Source of the DNA: a virus
Taxonomy: Duplodnaviria; Heunggongvirae; Uroviricota; Caudoviricetes
DNA length: 5,697 bases
Reading direction: 5' to 3' (one strand)
IMG/VR virus record: IMGVR_UViG_3300026224_000013
Coordinates: 1-5,697 of that record
Positions 1 to 5,697 of the stretch are shown here, in pieces; the first letter of the stretch is position 1, and each line of letters starts with the position of its first letter. A model generated the notes under the pieces. That model was not told the DNA's origin and ran no database searches. It worked only from the letters and a program-made list of their open reading frames with translations. A program made the position numbers and the translations under genes.

Positions 1-171
1 TCTGAGACAACATCTGGCAAGGCTGGGACGGAAGTCACTGTCGTTCTCAAAATCGGTGGAGCTGCATGACAAAGTCATCGGGCATTATCTGAACATAAAA
101 CACTATCAATAAGTTGGAGTCATTACCCTGTTATTGATGATGATATTGACAATAAGATTTATGCCTATGCT

Positions 172-897
172 ATGAATAACGCGATATCGTTTTCAAAAGT
201 TATTAATAACGATATAAAGAATGATAAGCCAGTTGTACTTACCTCTCTTGCTGAGGTTCAGAATGATTTGTGGGCCTATTGTATTAAAGTCCAAAAGGGG
301 GCTGACGTCACTTATTCTTTCCGAAAAATCAGCAGGGGGAAAGTCACAACAAATGAACCACAAAATATGACTCAGCGCGTATTCGCTTTGTTTGATAAAA
401 CAGATAAAGAGTTAAGATCATTTGATGGCAGCGCAGTCAATTTTGATGACAAAATCGATTGTATTTATATAAAAGATCAATTTTATGTATTTCATAAGAA
501 AAGTTTTGAGGCTATTGTAGGCTTGGAGGTTGAGTTTACAGAAGCTGCACAAAAAACATTAAATACAATTAAAGAACTTGATCTTATTGAAGGTTTAGAT
601 GTTATTGAACAAGCTATTCTTCATAAGCCATCACTGAGAAAAATTCTCACTCATATCGCTGAGAAAGGTAACCATACGGCTCTGGAAAAGAATGATGTTC
701 AAGCTATGAATGATGTGTTAAAAATGTTTCAGAACGAAGAGTTTAAGACCAATGAGCATGGTAAATTAGTCATAGAAGATGAGAGGCAAGGAAGAAACTT
801 TCTCAAACTGTTAAATGATTATTATAAACAAGGCATGACTACAAAAAAATACTATGGTACGGATAGCGGAAATGTGATTAACCCTATTAAGGCGTAA
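172..897 (+). CDS. Hypothetical protein, 241 aa, AT-rich orphan ORF (candidate moron/accessory gene; function unknown)
   Basis: Uninterrupted ATG-initiated ORF of 726 nt. Composition is strikingly AT-rich (about 28-30% GC by eye) against roughly 50% GC in the phage genes downstream. Product is Lys/Asn/Asp/Glu-rich with no transmembrane segment and no catalytic motif I can recognise (no Walker A, no HxH/HExxH). No obvious Shine-Dalgarno sequence. Confidence 0.65.
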   Translation: MNNAISFSKVINNDIKNDKPVVLTSLAEVQNDLWAYCIKVQKGADVTYSFRKISRGKVTTNEPQNMTQRVFALFDKTDKELRSFDGSAVNFDDKIDCIYIKDQFYVFHKKSFEAIVGLEVEFTEAAQKTLNTIKELDLIEGLDVIEQAILHKPSLRKILTHIAEKGNHTALEKNDVQAMNDVLKMFQNEEFKTNEHGKLVIEDERQGRNFLKLLNDYYKQGMTTKKYYGTDSGNVINPIKA

Positions 898-1096
898 AGC
901 ATATACTATATCTGGAACTGAAATACCAGCCGCCATCAGAAAGAACTGATGGGGCTTACAAATAGTAAGTAAATATAAAATGTTAAGGTATTTTTCATGC
1001 AAAAATGAAAATCATTGGCACAAATTAGAAACTAAGTAAATTGCTAATACTAATAACTTATTATTCTACTTACTATTTGCATGGAGTTGTTGTGAA

Positions 1097-1130
1097 TTGC
1101 TGGAAAGGTGGGTAATGTTTTTGTAGAATC
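1097..1130 (+). promoter_or_regulatory. Candidate promoter of the hok/mok mRNA
   Basis: TGTAGAAT (TG plus TAGAAT -10 at 1124-1129) with a weak -35 (TGGAAA, 1101-1106). The predicted start region just downstream, GGCGGGTGCTTGAGGCTATCTGCCTC, resembles the 5' leader of plasmid R1 hok mRNA as I recall it. Confidence 0.4.
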
Positions 1131-1182
1131 ACGGCGGGTGCTTGAGGCTATCTGCCTCGGGCACGAACACCAAAGGCAGATA

Positions 1183-1256
1183 GAGAAAAGCCCCAGTTAA
1201 CATTACGCGTCCGGCAAGACGCTTAACATTAATCTGAGGCCAATTTCATGCTTTGC
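1183..1256 (-). ncRNA. sok: Candidate Sok-type antisense RNA (antitoxin of the hok module)
   Basis: Minus-strand promoter-like elements: -35 TTGCCT (complement of 1286-1291), 17-nt spacer, -10 TAACCT (complement of 1263-1268), placed antisense over the mok start and leader as in hok/sok of R1. The minus-strand transcript can form a stem (GGCCUCAG/CUGGGGC with one G-U) ending in a U-rich tract (cttttctct). Exact ends are approximate. Confidence 0.45.
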
Positions 1257-1460
1257 ACATGTAGGTTAGCCTCTTACGTGCCGAAAGGCAAGGAGAAGCA
1301 GGCTATGAAGCAGCAAAAGGCGATGTTAATCGCCCTGATCGTCATCTGTTTAACCGTCATTGTGACGGCACTGGTAACGAGGAAAGACCTCTGCGAGGTA
1401 CGAATCCGAACCGGGCAGACGGAGGTCGCTGTCTTCGTAGACTACGAATCTAGAGAGTAA
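1248..1460 (+). CDS. mok: Mok-like in-frame leader/regulatory ORF overlapping hok (70 aa)
   Basis: ATG at 1248 is in frame with hok and adds 19 N-terminal residues (MLCTCRLASYVPKGKEKQA). This resembles the in-frame MokC extension of chromosomal HokC as I recall it. Translation of this frame is inferred by analogy only. Confidence 0.45.
   Translation: MLCTCRLASYVPKGKEKQAMKQQKAMLIALIVICLTVIVTALVTRKDLCEVRIRTGQTEVAVFVDYESRE
1305..1460 (+). CDS. hok: Hok/Gef-family type I toxin (51 aa small membrane toxin)
   Basis: Translation MKQQKAMLIALIVICLTVIVTALVTRKDLCEVRIRTGQTEVAVFVDYESRE carries the hallmark Hok/Gef/RelF pattern: N-terminal TM helix, TRKxLCE motif, periplasmic tail ending YES. AGGAG-like RBS (aaggagaag) lies 8-16 nt upstream of the ATG. 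Confidence 0.88.
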   Translation: MKQQKAMLIALIVICLTVIVTALVTRKDLCEVRIRTGQTEVAVFVDYESRE

Positions 1461-1469
1461 GAGTGACCA

Positions 1470-1491
1470 GGCGGGAGAGTAATCTCCCGCC
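1470..1491 (+). promoter_or_regulatory. Perfect 9-bp stem-loop in the hok mRNA 3' UTR (candidate fold-back/processing element)
   Basis: GGCGGGAGA-gtaa-TCTCCCGCC is a perfect 9-bp stem with a GNRA-type tetraloop (GUAA), immediately after the hok stop. Hok mRNAs are known to carry 3' structural elements (fbi) that pair with the 5' end. Confidence 0.5.
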
Positions 1492-1530
1492 ACCTCTGAT
1501 GTGTCAGGCATCCTCAATGCACCCACACTT

Positions 1531-1562
1531 AACCCGCTTCGGCGGGTTTTTGTTTTTATTTT
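1531..1562 (+). terminator. Rho-independent terminator of the hok transcript
   Basis: AACCCGC-ttcg-GCGGGTT (7-bp stem, UUCG tetraloop) followed by TTTTGTTTTTATTTT. Confidence 0.75.
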
Positions 1563-1570
1563 CAACGCGT

Positions 1571-1600
1571 TTGAAGTTTTGGATAGTGCCGGAATAGAAT
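1571..1600 (+). promoter_or_regulatory. Candidate sigma70 promoter upstream of the small ORF/DUF1367/YbcO/Q-like gene block
   Basis: -35 TTGAAG (1571-1576), 18-nt spacer, -10 TAGAAT (1595-1600). Sequence-only prediction. Confidence 0.3.
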
Positions 1601-1682
1601 CAAAAATACTTAAGTAGCGCGCAGGGAGAAGAGGGATGGACCCCGAACAGGGGAGTGCTATTTATCTGGAAGGATTCTGAAG

Positions 1683-1856
1683 ATGAAAATCGAAGAATTG
1701 CGTGAAATTTTTAGTGAAGATGGCCTCTATGCTGTGCGCGTTGAGAATGGAGAAGTTATCTACACAACGTTAATTCCTGATGATCATGTGATTTTATCTA
1801 TCGAGGCATTCATTGAATACCTTGAAAGGCTCGGTTTCAAGGTGGTTCGCGAATGA
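1683..1856 (+). CDS. Small hypothetical protein (57 aa), acidic, not in the supplied ORF track
   Basis: ATG at 1683 with GGAAGGA upstream and stop at 1854-1856. Translation is MKIEELREIFSEDGLYAVRVENGEVIYTTLIPDDHVILSIEAFIEYLERLGFKVVRE. GC content and codon use match the downstream phage genes. No family assigned. Confidence 0.45.
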   Translation: MKIEELREIFSEDGLYAVRVENGEVIYTTLIPDDHVILSIEAFIEYLERLGFKVVRE

Positions 1857-1915
1857 GTTATAATTCGTAAGCCAGCCTGAACAACTGGCAACCTACAGCG
1901 CCATTGGAGACAGCA

Positions 1916-2515
1916 ATGGCGCATATACAACTGGTCAAACAAACCTCTTCCGGATTACTTCTCCCGGCGACGCCGGAGAGTTGTGATTTTCTGCATCAAA
2001 TCAAAATAGGCGAGTGGATACACGCTGATTTTAAGCGCGTTCGTAACTACGCATTCCATAAGCGTTTTTTCAAACTTCTGCAACTCGGATTCGATTACTG
2101 GACTCCGGTCGGTGGGGCGATCACACCTCGCGAACGAGAACTGCTGTCTGGTTTCGTGGATTACCTGTGCGAATCAGTTGGTCGGGAACACACACCAGCC
2201 CTGAGTGATGCCGCAGAGCAATATCTAAATACAGTTGCGATACGCAGAACCCGGGATACGGCATTGCTAAAGTCGTTTGAGGCTTTCCGCGAGTGGGTAA
2301 CCATTCAGGCCGGATTTTACACCGAGCATCTTTATCCTGATGGTAGCCGTGGGCGTCGGGCGAAATCTATCGCGTTTGCGAATATGGACGAAACCGTGTT
2401 TCAGCAGGTTTATAAATCTGTACTGAATGTGCTGTGGAACTGGATTCTGTTCCGTAAATTTTCCTCTCCGGAACAAGTCGAAAATGTGGCCGCGCAGCTG
2501 CTGGAGTTTGCGTAA
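1916..2515 (+). CDS. Lambdoid nin-region protein, DUF1367-like (199 aa from ATG 1916; the track ORF begins at TTG 1904)
   Basis: Long ORF with GGAGA RBS 5 nt upstream of ATG 1916. Its stop TAA (2513-2515) overlaps the ATG of the next gene. Family assignment is from memory of prophage genes that precede YbcO-like and Q genes, so it is tentative; the coding call itself is firmer. Confidence 0.7.
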   Translation: MAHIQLVKQTSSGLLLPATPESCDFLHQIKIGEWIHADFKRVRNYAFHKRFFKLLQLGFDYWTPVGGAITPRERELLSGFVDYLCESVGREHTPALSDAAEQYLNTVAIRRTRDTALLKSFEAFREWVTIQAGFYTEHLYPDGSRGRRAKSIAFANMDETVFQQVYKSVLNVLWNWILFRKFSSPEQVENVAAQLLEFA

Positions 2516-2805
2516 TGGTGGACTTACGTAAAGCGACGCGGGGGCAGATGTGCACCGTCAGAATTCCTGGCTACTGCAATCACGATCCGGAAACGTCTGT
2601 GCTGGCGCATTACCGACTGGCGGGAACGTGCGGAACAGCGATAAAGCCACACGATATGCAGGCAGCGATTGCCTGTAGCTCGTGCCACGATTTAATCGAC
2701 GGGCGGGTAAAAACCAGCGATTACACCAAAGAAGAATTACGCCTGATGCATGCAGAAGGTGTTTTTCGCACACAAGAAATCTGGAGAAAGGAGGGATATT
2801 TATGA
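2515..2805 (+). CDS. YbcO-like (DUF1364) Cys-rich putative nuclease of lambdoid prophages (96 aa)
   Basis: Translation MVDLRKATRGQMCTVRIPGYCNHDPETSVLAHYRL...IACSSCHDLIDGR has the size and conserved Cys/His spacing I associate with E. coli DLP12 YbcO. Start overlaps the upstream stop (TAATG) and the stop overlaps the downstream start (ATGA). Confidence 0.75.
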   Translation: MVDLRKATRGQMCTVRIPGYCNHDPETSVLAHYRLAGTCGTAIKPHDMQAAIACSSCHDLIDGRVKTSDYTKEELRLMHAEGVFRTQEIWRKEGYL

Positions 2806-3338
2806 TTTACCCAACGAATACAGGAAAAAGCGGAGAACACCTTCGTCTCACCACGCTGGAAAGTGTCTGGATTCAGGGAAAACTACGTATGTGGGGGCGC
2901 TGGTCGTATATTGGCGGCGGCAGGTCAGGGAATATGTTTAACCAGTTGCTGGCATCCCAAAAAATGACAAAAACAGCCATCAATGAAGCCCTGCGCAGAT
3001 TGAAAAAAGCGGGAATTGATAAACCAGAGTTGGAAGCATTTTTGCGTGAGATGATCGAAGGAAAGCAAAAAAGCTGGTTAACTCACTGCACTGATGCAGA
3101 GGCACTAAAAATTGATAGTGTTATAGGTGAAGTTCTGGCGGATCATCCAGGACTACTAAATGTCCTGAGTCAGCGTTATGTGGGGCGAGGGATGAGTAAG
3201 AGAAGGATGGCAGAGTTATTAAACGAACAGTACCCAGAGTGGGCGTTGATTACATGCCGACGTCGTGTTGAGCAGTGGTTGCGTGTTGCTGAGTTCATTT
3301 TGTATTCACCTATGAGAGAAGCGTTCGATTATGCTTAA
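2802..3338 (+). CDS. Putative late-gene antiterminator, Q-like (178 aa from ATG 2802)
   Basis: ATG 2802 has a strong AGGAGGG RBS and overlaps the YbcO-like stop. The gene is the last before a promoter/terminator pair, the tRNAs and the lysis genes, which is where Q sits in lambdoid phages. Family identity is inferred mainly from position and size, not a recognised motif. The longer track ORF from 2682 is rejected as a 5' extension. Confidence 0.55.
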   Translation: MIYPTNTGKSGEHLRLTTLESVWIQGKLRMWGRWSYIGGGRSGNMFNQLLASQKMTKTAINEALRRLKKAGIDKPELEAFLREMIEGKQKSWLTHCTDAEALKIDSVIGEVLADHPGLLNVLSQRYVGRGMSKRRMAELLNEQYPEWALITCRRRVEQWLRVAEFILYSPMREAFDYA

Positions 3339-3345
3339 AAAATCA

Positions 3346-3374
3346 TTGCAAAATGAGCCACAAACTGCTTCAAT
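3346..3374 (+). promoter_or_regulatory. Candidate late promoter (pR'-like) immediately downstream of the Q-like gene
   Basis: -35 TTGCAA (3346-3351), 17-nt spacer, -10 TTCAAT (3369-3374), about 60 nt upstream of a strong intrinsic terminator. This matches the pR'-to-tR' short-transcript layout of lambdoid phages. Weak consensus match. Confidence 0.25.
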
Positions 3375-3434
3375 TTTGGTACGCTTCGCAAAGCTGTATC
3401 GCGAGGCGAATCAAGCGCAATTGAACTTTAATAG

Positions 3435-3462
3435 AACCCGCCATCGAGCGGGTTTTGTTGTT
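3435..3462 (+). terminator. Rho-independent terminator (candidate tR')
   Basis: AACCCGC-catcga-GCGGGTT (7-bp stem) followed by TTGTTGTTTCTG U-rich tract. Confidence 0.55.
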
Positions 3463-3595
3463 TCTGCGGTGTTATATAAGAAACGACATTTAATAATCTC
3501 CTTCAAAATAAATTTGTTTATATATTGTCATGTATATTTTAAGTGAAAGTGAAATATTCACATAAAATAAAAACATATAAATAAATTTACATAAC

Positions 3596-3624
3596 TTGAC
3601 GCAAAGTGTTGTTGCGATTGGAAT
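3596..3624 (+). promoter_or_regulatory. Candidate promoter with AT-rich UP-like region upstream of the tRNA genes (alternative pR' candidate)
   Basis: -35 TTGACG (3596-3601), 17-nt spacer, -10 TGGAAT (3619-3624), preceded by about 130 bp of extremely AT-rich DNA (3470-3595) and about 75 nt upstream of the first tRNA. Confidence 0.3.
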
Positions 3625-3702
3625 ATTAAATCGTATCATCGAAAACGGTTCTGAGGGGGAACTCTTCTTTGCTCGGTGATATCGCTCCCCTGAAGAACCA
3701 AT

Positions 3703-3778
<76 letters not shown>

Positions 3779-3781
3779 TAT

Positions 3782-3856
<75 letters not shown>

Positions 3857-4156
3857 GAGAAACAAGCCTTATTGTATTGCGGCACTGGCGTATTTTTTAT
3901 TACGTGGGAGCAGGTTGTATTGAAAAAGCATTCTGTTCTCTGGCTATGATTTGAGGCCGGGTGTAGCCTCAGTGCTGATTTTTTACGGCAGCAGAATGGT
4001 GCATTATCGGTGGAGATTTTGTATTTCCTGGCAGGGTCGGTGATGCATCATTCTGGTGTTGTAAAAGCACCACAGAGGCGTTCCTCAGTGCGAGGGTGGT
4101 TTAAAGAGTCGGTTTAGCGGGAAACCACAGTATCCATACAGAACGGAATACTTCGG

Positions 4157-4182
4157 GAGGCACCCGACGCCTCGATTTTATT
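4157..4182 (+). terminator. Terminator-like hairpin with U-tract inside the non-coding block
   Basis: GAGGC-acccgac-GCCTC (5-bp stem) followed by GATTTTATT. Confidence 0.4.
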
Positions 4183-4212
4183 ACAATTAAAAATTCATCC
4201 CTTGCATTGACC

Positions 4213-4241
4213 AACCGCCTCCACCAGGCGGTTTTTTTTAT
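4213..4241 (+). terminator. Strong rho-independent terminator inside the non-coding block
   Basis: AACCGCCT-ccacc-AGGCGGTT (8-bp GC-rich stem) followed by TTTTTTATT. Confidence 0.7.
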
Positions 4242-4421
4242 TCTGAATTCAGTTTCTTCATGGCTCGCTACGGCGGGCCTTTTTCATATCCGCGCCACGC
4301 CCGGCGCACATCAAAAACCACAGAGCCTTTCAGGGGTGAGCTTACGGGATGGTCAGTGTGACTTTCTCTGTGGGCTGGTCACCCCCGGGCGGAGGCTCAC
4401 CCACTAAAAGGAAAAGTCACG

Positions 4422-4847
4422 ATGTTTGGTATTTTCAAAAAGAAAACCCGCAAGGCCATTACCGAAGTGAAGAAGATGGAGAACCGCGACGCAGTGGAGG
4501 CGACCGTCTGGGGTGCGTATTCCATTGCATACGCTGACGGCACCTGCGACGCGAAAGAAATCGCAGTACTGGAGAAAACCATTGCAGCACTTCCTGCCTT
4601 TGCACCGTTCTCCGGCGAGATTGCACAAATGAGTGCAAATATCCGCGCCCGTTATGAAGCGTCGCCGCGCTCTGCTAATGCTGAAGCCCTTCGCCAGCTG
4701 GCTGATGTTGCCGGTACTGATGACGCAGTTAATGTGCTGTGCCTGTGTCTGGATATCGCTGACCAGGATGGCATTGGTCCGGATGAAGAAGCACAGCTCA
4801 AGAAAATTGCTCAGGCGCTTCAGCTACCGCTGGAGCAGTACCTGTGA
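4422..4847 (+). CDS. TerB-like (tellurite-resistance TerB domain-like) protein, 141 aa
   Basis: ATG 4422 with AAAGGAAAAG upstream. Soluble, acidic, mostly helical-looking sequence with paired Asp-rich segments (AYADGTCDAKEIAVLEKTIAA... and ...LCLCLDIADQDGIGPDEEAQLKKIAQAL) as in TerB-fold proteins. The family call is from pattern memory, not a search. Confidence 0.65.
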   Translation: MFGIFKKKTRKAITEVKKMENRDAVEATVWGAYSIAYADGTCDAKEIAVLEKTIAALPAFAPFSGEIAQMSANIRARYEASPRSANAEALRQLADVAGTDDAVNVLCLCLDIADQDGIGPDEEAQLKKIAQALQLPLEQYL

Positions 4848-4996
4848 AAAGTGCGCGTCTTGTACTGGCTGCCATCCTGCTGTTTCTGGTAGTGGCGGTG
4901 GATTTCACCGGACGCCTGATGTCAGTGCTTGCCGATGGCGTGCTGGTGGCGATGGCGCTGGTCGTGCTCCGGCCTTTACTGCGTAAATCTGAATAA
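4844..4996 (+). CDS. Putative small membrane protein (50 aa, GTG start overlapping the upstream stop), not in the ORF track
   Basis: GTG 4844-4846 overlaps the TGA 4845-4847 of the TerB-like gene (GTGA). Translation VKSARLVLAAILLFLVVAVDFTGRLMSVLADGVLVAMALVVLRPLLRKSE has two hydrophobic stretches and a basic C-terminus. An internal ATG (about 4907-4909, same frame) would give only 29 aa. Confidence 0.35.
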   Translation: MKSARLVLAAILLFLVVAVDFTGRLMSVLADGVLVAMALVVLRPLLRKSE

Positions 4997-5043
4997 CACC
5001 ACACAAAAGGCATCTGCGGGTGCCTTTGATGGGGTGTTTTTAT

Positions 5044-5069
5044 GGGCCGTTGGTGGCCCTTTTTTATTT
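5044..5069 (+). terminator. Hairpin with U-tract upstream of the holin gene (terminator-like or regulatory)
   Basis: GGGCC-gttggt-GGCCC followed by TTTTTTTATTT. A weaker hairpin AAAGGCA-tctgcggg-TGCCTTT (5006-5027) lies just before it. Confidence 0.4.
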
Positions 5070-5083
5070 ACAGGAGAAAAAGT

Positions 5084-5449
5084 ATGTCTGAACCCTTATC
5101 CGGTTCCGGCACGGCTGCGGCGCTCGGCGGGGCGACGGTATTCGGGCTGTTTACCGGAACGGATTTCGGGATTGTGTTTGGTGCGTTCGCCGGGGCGTTG
5201 TTTGTGGCAACGATGCCGCAGAAGATTTCAGCCTGGCGTGTGGCGGCACATTTTCTGGTGTCGTTCATTGTTGGTGTACTGGGGGCGCGTGTACTGTCAG
5301 CCTGGATTGCATCAAAAACAGGTTATGACGGTACATCTGCGGAGGCACTGTGTGCGGTGCTGGTGGCGGTGGGGCTTAATCTGCTGTTCTGCGTGCTGGT
5401 GATACGTGCACGCGGGAACGTTTCAAAAATCCTTTCATTCCGGAGGTGA
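5084..5449 (+). CDS. Putative holin (121 aa, multi-TM, Gly/Ala-rich)
   Basis: ATG 5084 with AGGAG RBS (5072-5076). Three to four hydrophobic segments and a charged C-terminus (RARGNVSKILSFRR). Stop TGA 5447-5449 lies 2 nt before the endolysin ATG. The track ORF start at 5042 sits inside the upstream hairpin and is rejected. Confidence 0.6.
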   Translation: MSEPLSGSGTAAALGGATVFGLFTGTDFGIVFGAFAGALFVATMPQKISAWRVAAHFLVSFIVGVLGARVLSAWIASKTGYDGTSAEALCAVLVAVGLNLLFCVLVIRARGNVSKILSFRR

Positions 5450-5451
5450 GC

Positions 5452-5697
5452 ATGTCGGGTAAATTCAGATTCAGTCGTCGCAGTGAAAAAAATCTGGAGG
5501 GCGTCAAACCACAGCTGGTTGCTGTCGTTCGCCGTGCCCTTGAGCTGACGGAGGTTGATTTCGGTATTACGGAAGGGCTGCGCACGAAAGAACGCCAGAA
5601 ACAGCTGGTCGCGGAAGGGAAAAGCCAGACCATGAACAGCCGCCACCTGACCGGTGATGCTGTGGATGTTGTGGCTTATGTTGGCAGCCAGGTGTCA
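5452..5697 (+). CDS. Endolysin, peptidase M15 family (L-alanyl-D-glutamate peptidase / VanY-like), 5' partial (82 codons, runs off the window)
   Basis: Translation MSGKFRFSRRSEKNLEGVKPQLVAVVRRALELTEVDFGITEGLRTKERQKQLVAEGKSQTMNSRHLTGDAVDVVAYV... contains the SxHxxGxAxD zinc-binding signature (SRHLTGDAVD) typical of M15 peptidases. GGAGG RBS upstream. Confidence 0.8.
   Translation, partial: MSGKFRFSRRSEKNLEGVKPQLVAVVRRALELTEVDFGITEGLRTKERQKQLVAEGKSQTMNSRHLTGDAVDVVAYVGSQVS

Follow-up and report, generated by a model that had tools for sequence, protein, structure and literature searches.

The open reading frame (ORF) at positions 172-897 of a 5,697-nt viral sequence is very probably (we put the chance at about 0.9) the 3' remnant of a kwaB gene that was interrupted by the insertion sequence IS1; that is, it derives from a known defense gene that was recently inactivated. 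We refer to the whole stretch of DNA that was analyzed, all 5,697 nt, as the window (positions 1 to 5,697 of IMG/VR record IMGVR_UViG_3300026224_000013). A model that read the window without any database searches (the sequence-only reading) had taken this ORF for an orphan gene and for the strongest candidate for an undescribed function. The supposed prime candidate for a new function turns out to be a fragment of a published defense gene, and as a candidate for a new working function it is the weakest. The end of IS1 at positions 1-127 completely alters how the ORF is to be interpreted.

The ORF is present as it had been described: in the ORF list of the window, 172-897 is an ATG-to-TAA frame of 241 amino acids on the plus strand. 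The minus-strand ORFs beneath it are short (56, 44, and 63 amino acids) and lie in AT-rich DNA. The ORF was said to have 28-30% GC and to be far richer in AT than its neighbors of about 50% GC. The contrast holds, but the figure does not: GC content is 34.0% for the ORF (30.6% at third codon positions), as compared to 48.6% for 1916-3338, which is the comparison that had been proposed, and 49.3% for 1101-5697. Within 1101-5697, the lowest 726-nt segment has 39.0% GC, which is above the ORF. The description of the protein as hydrophilic, rich in Lys, Asn, and Glu, and lacking transmembrane segments was accurate as well. It is enriched in K, N, L, I, D, and E, its GRAVY score is -0.50, and no transmembrane-like segment was found in its 241 residues (the maximum KD value over 19 residues is 0.81).

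The ORF is not an orphan: it belongs to KwaB, a protein of the Kiwa defense system. The Pfam model for KwaB (PF16162; DUF4868) matches residues 31-218 of the ORF along positions 2-180 of its 186, with 62.1 bits (the cutoff is 26.3) and E = 9e-17. PADLOC's KwaB model PDLC00223 matches with E = 6.2e-115, ten more PADLOC models of KwaB also match (eleven in total), and PHROGs profiles likewise identify the protein as KwaB. The NCBIfam equivalog for KwaB (NF041623) gives 53 bits, under its cutoff of 200; the ORF is thus a member of the broader KwaB family that lies outside this equivalog. By BLASTP, all 241 residues are identical to residues 100-340 of WP_000915482.1, a protein of 340 amino acids that RefSeq names [quoted passage not shown] The sequence-only reading saw no catalytic or nucleotide-binding motif and judged the protein to be unassignable by eye. 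The profiles do assign it, and RefSeq already annotates the identical sequence. That reading had also proposed searches with HMMER against Pfam and PADLOC, and it named a confident match to a characterized housekeeping or structural phage family as evidence against itself. We did find a confident match to a characterized family, although it is a family of defense proteins and not a housekeeping or structural one.

A Foldseek search with a predicted structure had been suggested too. We made the fold comparison with an intact relative of 340 amino acids (P0001, which is 99% identical). The AF2 model of P0001 has a pLDDT of 79 and a pTM of 0.67. Its top six matches in PDB are all KwaB (9mrx, 9nyu, and 9mtn), with a probability of 1.00, E values from 7.7e-14 to 2e-10, and TM scores of 0.56-0.66 over about 340 aligned columns. 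The next match has E = 0.2, so solved KwaB structures are the only significant matches for the intact relative, which has their fold. A full-length KwaB has two domains and 315-342 amino acids; the window ORF does not have this architecture, but the ancestral allele does.

We first suspected that the ORF was cut at its 5' end because the alignment to PDLC00223 covers only positions 100-338 of the profile's 339. The DNA before the ORF explains where the rest went. The features of this part of the window are as follows.

1-127, plus strand: right end of IS1, with the 3' end of insB in frame 2 (stop codon at 110-112) and the terminal inverted repeat, which ends GGAGTCATTACC at 127.
128-136, no strand: right-hand copy of the 9-bp target-site duplication, CTGTTATTG, which corresponds to kwaB nucleotides 254-262 and is repeated before the left end of IS1 in contig L007.
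128-897, plus strand: 3' remnant of kwaB, nucleotides 254-1023, running from codon 85 (second base) through the stop codon.
172-897, plus strand: the flagged ORF, KwaB residues 100-340 (241/241 by BLASTP), which starts at the internal Met100.
IS1-kwaB junction string: AAGTTGGAGTCATTACCCTGTTATTGATG.

Positions 1-127 are identical at 127 of 127 bases to annotated copies of IS1 ("IS1 family transposase"), which number about 72,000 across 4,965 E. coli genomes. Both the terminal inverted repeat and the coding sequence for the C terminus of InsB are present. A TGA at 67-69 was considered as the stop codon of the transposase and was ruled out, because insB is read in frame 2 and has its stop codon at 110-112. 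In a DNA alignment, the similarity between the window and the intact allele breaks exactly between 127 and 128, and base 128 is nucleotide 254 of kwaB, the second base of codon 85. Thus, the 5' boundary of the ORF, which had been taken for the start of a gene, is not one: bases 1-127 are an IS1 end that was overlooked, and the ORF is an in-frame leftover. It is visible to a reader or a gene caller because Met100 is the first start codon after the junction. Of 39 homologues, 24 have Leu here and 12 have Met.

If IS1 had inserted here, then a reciprocal left junction should exist. We predicted it and then found it by searching metagenome contigs, in a 41-kb contig from JGI (L007). On its minus strand, L007 has an intact kwaA, codons 1-87 of kwaB ending AAGTATACTGTTATTG, and then the left end of IS1, GGTGATGCTGCCAACTT. 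The 9 bp CTGTTATTG, which occur just once in the intact allele (L001, 6001-6009), directly abut the IS1 left end GGTGATGCTGCC, and L007 is 100% identical to the allele of E. coli CEA224S through CTGTTATTG. The upstream fragment encodes KwaB residues 1-87, followed by Gly and a stop codon inside IS1. The 9-bp direct duplication thus flanks the element, with the two junctions on separate contigs. Another contig, L002 (from ENA), does not differ from the window at any base across the right junction; it extends 13 nt further into IS1, and its ends differ from those of the window. All three contigs break off inside IS1, so the whole element is absent from them. Assemblies normally break at repeats.

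The right junction is absent from the 5,426 complete E. coli genomes that we searched. An exact search for it in a collection with one genome per species also found no match, and a strain-level event is not expected to appear in a species representative. From the same site, orientation, and allele, and from the shared 9 bp, we infer that the two junctions arose from one event or genome, while the contigs may come from different samples. Together they read as a simple insertion of IS1, with a 9-bp target duplication, inside codon 85 of kwaB. The insertion is recent, with decay not yet begun, because the remnant has no substitution relative to the intact allele over 1,123 nt. IS1 prefers AT-rich DNA, and the insertion site has just 24% GC over 50 bp; AT-richness probably also made the Kiwa cassette a good target for IS1.

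The intact form of the locus is known. When we compared positions 1-1250 of the window to the 5,426 complete E. coli genomes with megablast, 156 genomes matched at 99.5-100% identity, and all of these matches start at base 128. The best match, CEA224S, is 100.0% identical at the DNA level across 128-1250 (1,123 nt), under a coding sequence annotated as KwaB-like. Its locus consists of a gene for a 204-aa protein, a gap of 2 nt, the 340-aa KwaB, and, downstream, hok. The 204-aa protein (WP_001265627.1) is KwaA (PADLOC PDLC00212, E = 1.3e-101 in L001), and the 340-aa KwaB in L001 matches its PADLOC profile along positions 1-338 (E = 1.5e-159). Each of the 156 E. coli genomes with this variant has an uninterrupted kwaAB, at 99% identity or above, with kwaA abutting kwaB. 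In the window, by contrast, IS1 stands directly upstream of the remnant, and the intact kwaA lies beyond IS1, in L007. Full-length homologues of this KwaB have 337-342 amino acids and occur in many genera, including Klebsiella, Aeromonas, Vibrio, Shewanella, Edwardsiella, Photobacterium, Pseudoalteromonas, and others.

An ENA contig with coverage of about 4x (L003; ERZ21883385, NODE_8547) contains, at 914-1936, kwaA and a collinear kwaB in which codon 96 is TAG instead of TAT. Its gene calls are a 95-aa ORF and an ORF that starts at Met100, which is a second route to the identical 241-aa ORF. The TAG is either an independent inactivation by a nonsense mutation or a sequencing error due to low coverage.

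We propose the following sequence of events. A lambdoid prophage carried kwaA and kwaB, the latter encoding the cytoplasmic DNA-binding effector of Kiwa, in an AT-rich accessory cassette that immediately precedes hok/sok. IS1 then inserted into codon 85 of kwaB, in the 24%-GC DNA, and duplicated 9 bp. This split kwaB into a 5' piece (codons 1-87, Gly, and stop) beyond IS1 and the 3' piece that is in the window.

What was lost can be compared to what is known about Kiwa. Other variants of Kiwa protect against phage and reduce conjugation, and both genes are needed: defense is gone when either is deleted. In those variants, KwaB binds DNA (PMC11785009). Residues 1-185 of KwaB form an N-terminal Rossmann-like domain and residues 186-315 a DUF4868 domain; both take part in dimerization, and DNA binding and Gam binding were mapped to its central channel and the DUF4868 domain (PMC11785009). 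It contacts KwaA via R21, R35, N42/alpha2, the 96-108 loop, and Y157, and the R21/R35/Y157 triple mutant loses defense (PMC11785009). In the AF2 model, the 99 residues that are missing from the ORF comprise two helices (4-15 and 56-74) and four strands (21-31, 45-52, 80-83, and 94-99), or most of the N-terminal sheet. They include the family-invariant residues R29, F47, D89, D90, Y96, and Y98. Residues 88-99, with D89, D90, Y96, and Y98, are missing from the KwaB 1-87 fragment and from the Met100 product alike. With phmmer, PDB entry 9mrx matches the C-terminal 160 residues (E = 1.5e-5) with an offset of about 22 residues. Given this approximate offset and the identity of about 16-25%, the equivalents of R21, R35, and N42/alpha2 would fall in the deleted part. 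By the same approximate offset, the remnant keeps the positions that are equivalent to the published DNA-contact residues.

The remnant does not seem to have expression signals of its own. There is no Shine-Dalgarno core within 25 nt upstream of 172, and no promoter-like site with a score of at least 9/12 was found upstream of 172 on the plus strand. When hexamers upstream of 172 were scored exhaustively, the best sites reached 8/12 (inside IS1) and 7/12 (across the junction). The ends of IS1 are able to form fusion promoters (PMC9330008). With those scores, we rejected a convincing IS1 fusion promoter at this junction, but weak activity is possible. No terminator-like site was found between insB and the ORF, and read-through from IS1 into the remnant is possible. 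It is also possible that a soluble DNA-binding fragment might be made from the remnant.

The family assignment, the IS1 end, the two junctions, the 9-bp duplication, and the loss of 99 residues are direct observations. From there, we infer that the remnant is not a working defense protein and that this prophage has no active Kiwa system, because the remnant lacks its own promoter and ribosome binding site, because the N-terminal part that contacts KwaA is lost, because residues 88-99 are in neither fragment, and because published deletion and interface mutants of either Kiwa gene lose defense. The population data also give no hint that the interrupted form is being maintained, because kwaAB is uninterrupted in 156 of the 156 E. 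coli genomes.

Nevertheless, KwaB(100-340) might be made via read-through from IS1 or a weak fusion promoter and might retain partial activity, either by itself (by binding DNA or Gam) or together with KwaB(1-87) and KwaA. The whole DUF4868/KwaB region of the Pfam model is kept, DNA and Gam binding map to the channel and domain that it encodes (PMC11785009), IS1 fusion promoters are documented (PMC9330008), and kwaA and the 5' fragment of kwaB persist upstream in L007. Split KwaB proteins also occur naturally: 70 of 9,797 Kiwa loci have a two-gene KwaB, and these are thought to be functional (PMC11785009). We found natural splits in L004-L006 as well, with kwaA followed by overlapping ORFs of 164 and 186 amino acids (11 contigs). 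However, these natural splits break near residue 160 with no residues lost, but here the break is inside the N-terminal beta-sheet, and 88-99 are gone from both pieces. Both domains take part in the KwaB dimer, and mutants in the N-terminal interface with KwaA lose defense (PMC11785009). There is no Shine-Dalgarno sequence, and the promoter-like sites reach 8/12 at best. Selection for such an arrangement is not apparent either, as it is present in none of the 156 E. coli genomes. We consider partial activity to be very unlikely. A narrower proposal, that low-level KwaB(100-340) from IS1 read-through acts without KwaA as a free DUF4868 protein that binds DNA and Gam, seems less likely still. 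The points in its favor are the retained DUF4868 region and the documented ability of IS1 to drive genes next to it. If it were true, the fragment might, for example, act as a decoy, sequestering Gam proteins from infecting lambdoid phages and thereby protecting RecBCD, and IS1 would have turned a membrane-gated effector into a stand-alone factor. (In L004-L006, at 1-3561, a 208-aa KwaA and the split KwaB adjoin a DNA methylase and a SacI-like restriction enzyme, which makes a small defense island; this was seen across the 11 contigs.)

Two other explanations were considered. The IS1-kwaB junction could be an assembly chimera at a repeat, with an intact kwaB in the source: the window and L002 are both short contigs of metagenome type with an end within IS1, and no complete E. 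coli genome contains the junction. But the join is at the terminal base of IS1 and not at a shared k-mer, L002 has the identical junction with different ends, and the reciprocal left junction in L007 has the expected 9-bp duplication, which a chimera would not produce. We regard a chimera as extremely unlikely. We give almost no credence to the original reading of the ORF as a complete gene from no known family with an undescribed function in exclusion or abortive infection. It fits the variable accessory region, the AT-rich composition, and the lack of a DNA match in a phage collection, but it is refuted by the KwaB matches in Pfam, PADLOC, and PHROGs, by the 100% identity (241/241) to residues 100-340 of a longer KwaB, and by the IS1 end directly upstream. 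As to the type of function, phage defense was the right idea and abortive infection was not: Kiwa is reported not to act in this way (PMC11785009). An inactivated kwaB therefore remains our preferred reading.

The sequence-only reading was right that this is a horizontally acquired accessory gene in a lambdoid prophage, beside a toxin-antitoxin module. In the intact locus, kwaA and kwaB form a 2.0-kb island of 23-37% GC between flanks of 49-50% GC. The features on the right side of the cassette are listed below.

898-1122, no strand: AT-rich 3' flank of the Kiwa cassette (30.0% GC for 898-1100), identical in the genomes that carry Kiwa.
1123-1163, plus strand: right-hand copy of an imperfect direct repeat of 41 nt (83% identity) that brackets the Kiwa cassette, which corresponds to L001 6996-7036 and is also the start of hok/sok.
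1136-1310, plus strand: hok/sok regulatory RNA (Rfam RF01794, sok; 113.2 bits against a gathering threshold of 59; E = 5e-26), which is outside Kiwa.
1305-1460, plus strand: coding sequence of the hok toxin, 51 amino acids (MKQQKAMLIALIVICLTVIVTALVTRKDLCEVRIRTGQTEVAVFVDYESRE), inside the ORF at 1248-1460; Pfam PF01848 (HOK_GEF) matches the called product in L002.

Prophages that lack Kiwa match the window from base 1123 onward, which marks the right boundary of the cassette. A repeat search of L001 placed the two copies of the 41-nt repeat at 4977-5017 and 6996-7036, with a spacing of 2019 nt, at the GC transitions around kwaAB. The left copy resembles a remnant of hok/sok, and another short match (88%, between L001 5007-5023 and 7373-7389) is similar to the 3' end of hok. 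This suggests that the cassette may have entered beside or into a hok/sok locus by recombination. Both the Hok/Gef peptide and the sok RNA region are present in the window, and CEA224S has a 156-nt "Hok/Gef family protein" annotated at the matching place. This variant of Kiwa and hok/sok seem to be tightly linked, as 156 genomes match 128-1250 and 156 carry kwaAB; presumably, these are the same genomes. DNA from 128-1100 had no match among 50,697 phage records. The Kiwa cassette is found in prophages inside bacterial genomes and not in deposited phage genomes.

Downstream of hok/sok, gene calls in L002 and Pfam identify Rem, DUF1367, YbcO, and a DUF1133/Q-like gene. The ORF had been placed upstream of a Q-like regulator, and such a gene is indeed downstream, but its assignment to Q is weak. 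The ORF list has a 218-aa ORF with a GTG start at 2682-3338, which overlaps ybcO, and the call in L002 is 178 amino acids at 2802-3338 (MIYPTNTGK...). The product of 2802-3338 matches DUF1133 in Pfam and, weakly, antiterminator Q, so the label "Q-like regulator" is weakly supported. Downstream of this gene, at 3703-3856, are tRNA-Thr(TGT) and tRNA-Gly(TCC); lambdoid and Stx-type phages often carry tRNAs downstream of Q. A second AT-rich patch (3401-3700, 29-31% GC) overlaps a 71-aa ORF at 3331-3546 that has no match in Pfam in the identical L002. About 560 nt of apparently noncoding DNA (3857-4421) lie between the tRNAs and a TerB-like gene. The prophage segment, 128-5697, is a mosaic. Coverage of it stays below 80% in every complete E. 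coli genome, and the part from Kiwa to hok is 99.5-100% identical to one set of genomes while the part from DUF1367 to the holin is 89-93% identical to others (porcine ETEC and mouse isolates).

Overall, the family, its mechanism, its structures, and the exact protein sequence are already public. The only particular feature of this copy is an IS1 knockout allele, and this is ordinary. It is a clean natural example of how an insertion sequence disables the Kiwa system of a prophage, for which we recovered the target duplication and the junctions on both sides, and it illustrates the ordinary turnover of defense genes. Gene callers report such remnants as 241-aa "KwaB" proteins, and for metagenomes this can inflate the counts of defense genes or of "solo" KwaB.

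The closest known system is the locus that encodes WP_000915482.1 and WP_001265627.1, which 156 complete E. coli genomes carry in lambdoid prophages. The 241 residues are identical, as are 1,123 nt that include the 3' flank and the start of hok/sok. The window copy lies at the same spot as in CEA224S-type loci, immediately upstream of hok/sok, but it lacks codons 1-84 and has IS1 instead of kwaA before it. The downstream genes of the window (DUF1367, YbcO, and DUF1133/Q-like) differ from those of CEA224S, as expected for a mosaic prophage.

As compared to the characterized Kiwa systems (O55:H7 RM12579, ECOR8, ECOR12, and ECOR49; structures 9mrx, 9nyu, and 9mtn; Zhang, Todeschini et al., PMC11785009), the full-length ancestor has the same family and fold and the same two-gene operon with a membrane KwaA (four transmembrane segments). 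It belongs to a divergent subfamily, with 340 instead of 315 amino acids and about 16-25% identity (16-17% by structural alignment). This subfamily is probably not that of ECOR49 or O55:H7, because published residues (such as P102/N103/Q104 of ECOR49) do not fit the sequence in the window. Unlike the characterized proteins, the truncated copy is predicted to be unable to form the KwaA-KwaB interface via R21, R35, and alpha2. As in naturally split KwaB, the C-terminal part is a separate ORF, but in the window the break is at 85-100, within the N-terminal domain, with 768 bp of IS1 between the pieces and 12 residues lost. Finally, the insertion resembles other gene disruptions by IS1, with the same terminal IS1 sequence, a 9-bp direct repeat, and an AT-rich target, and nothing about it is unusual.
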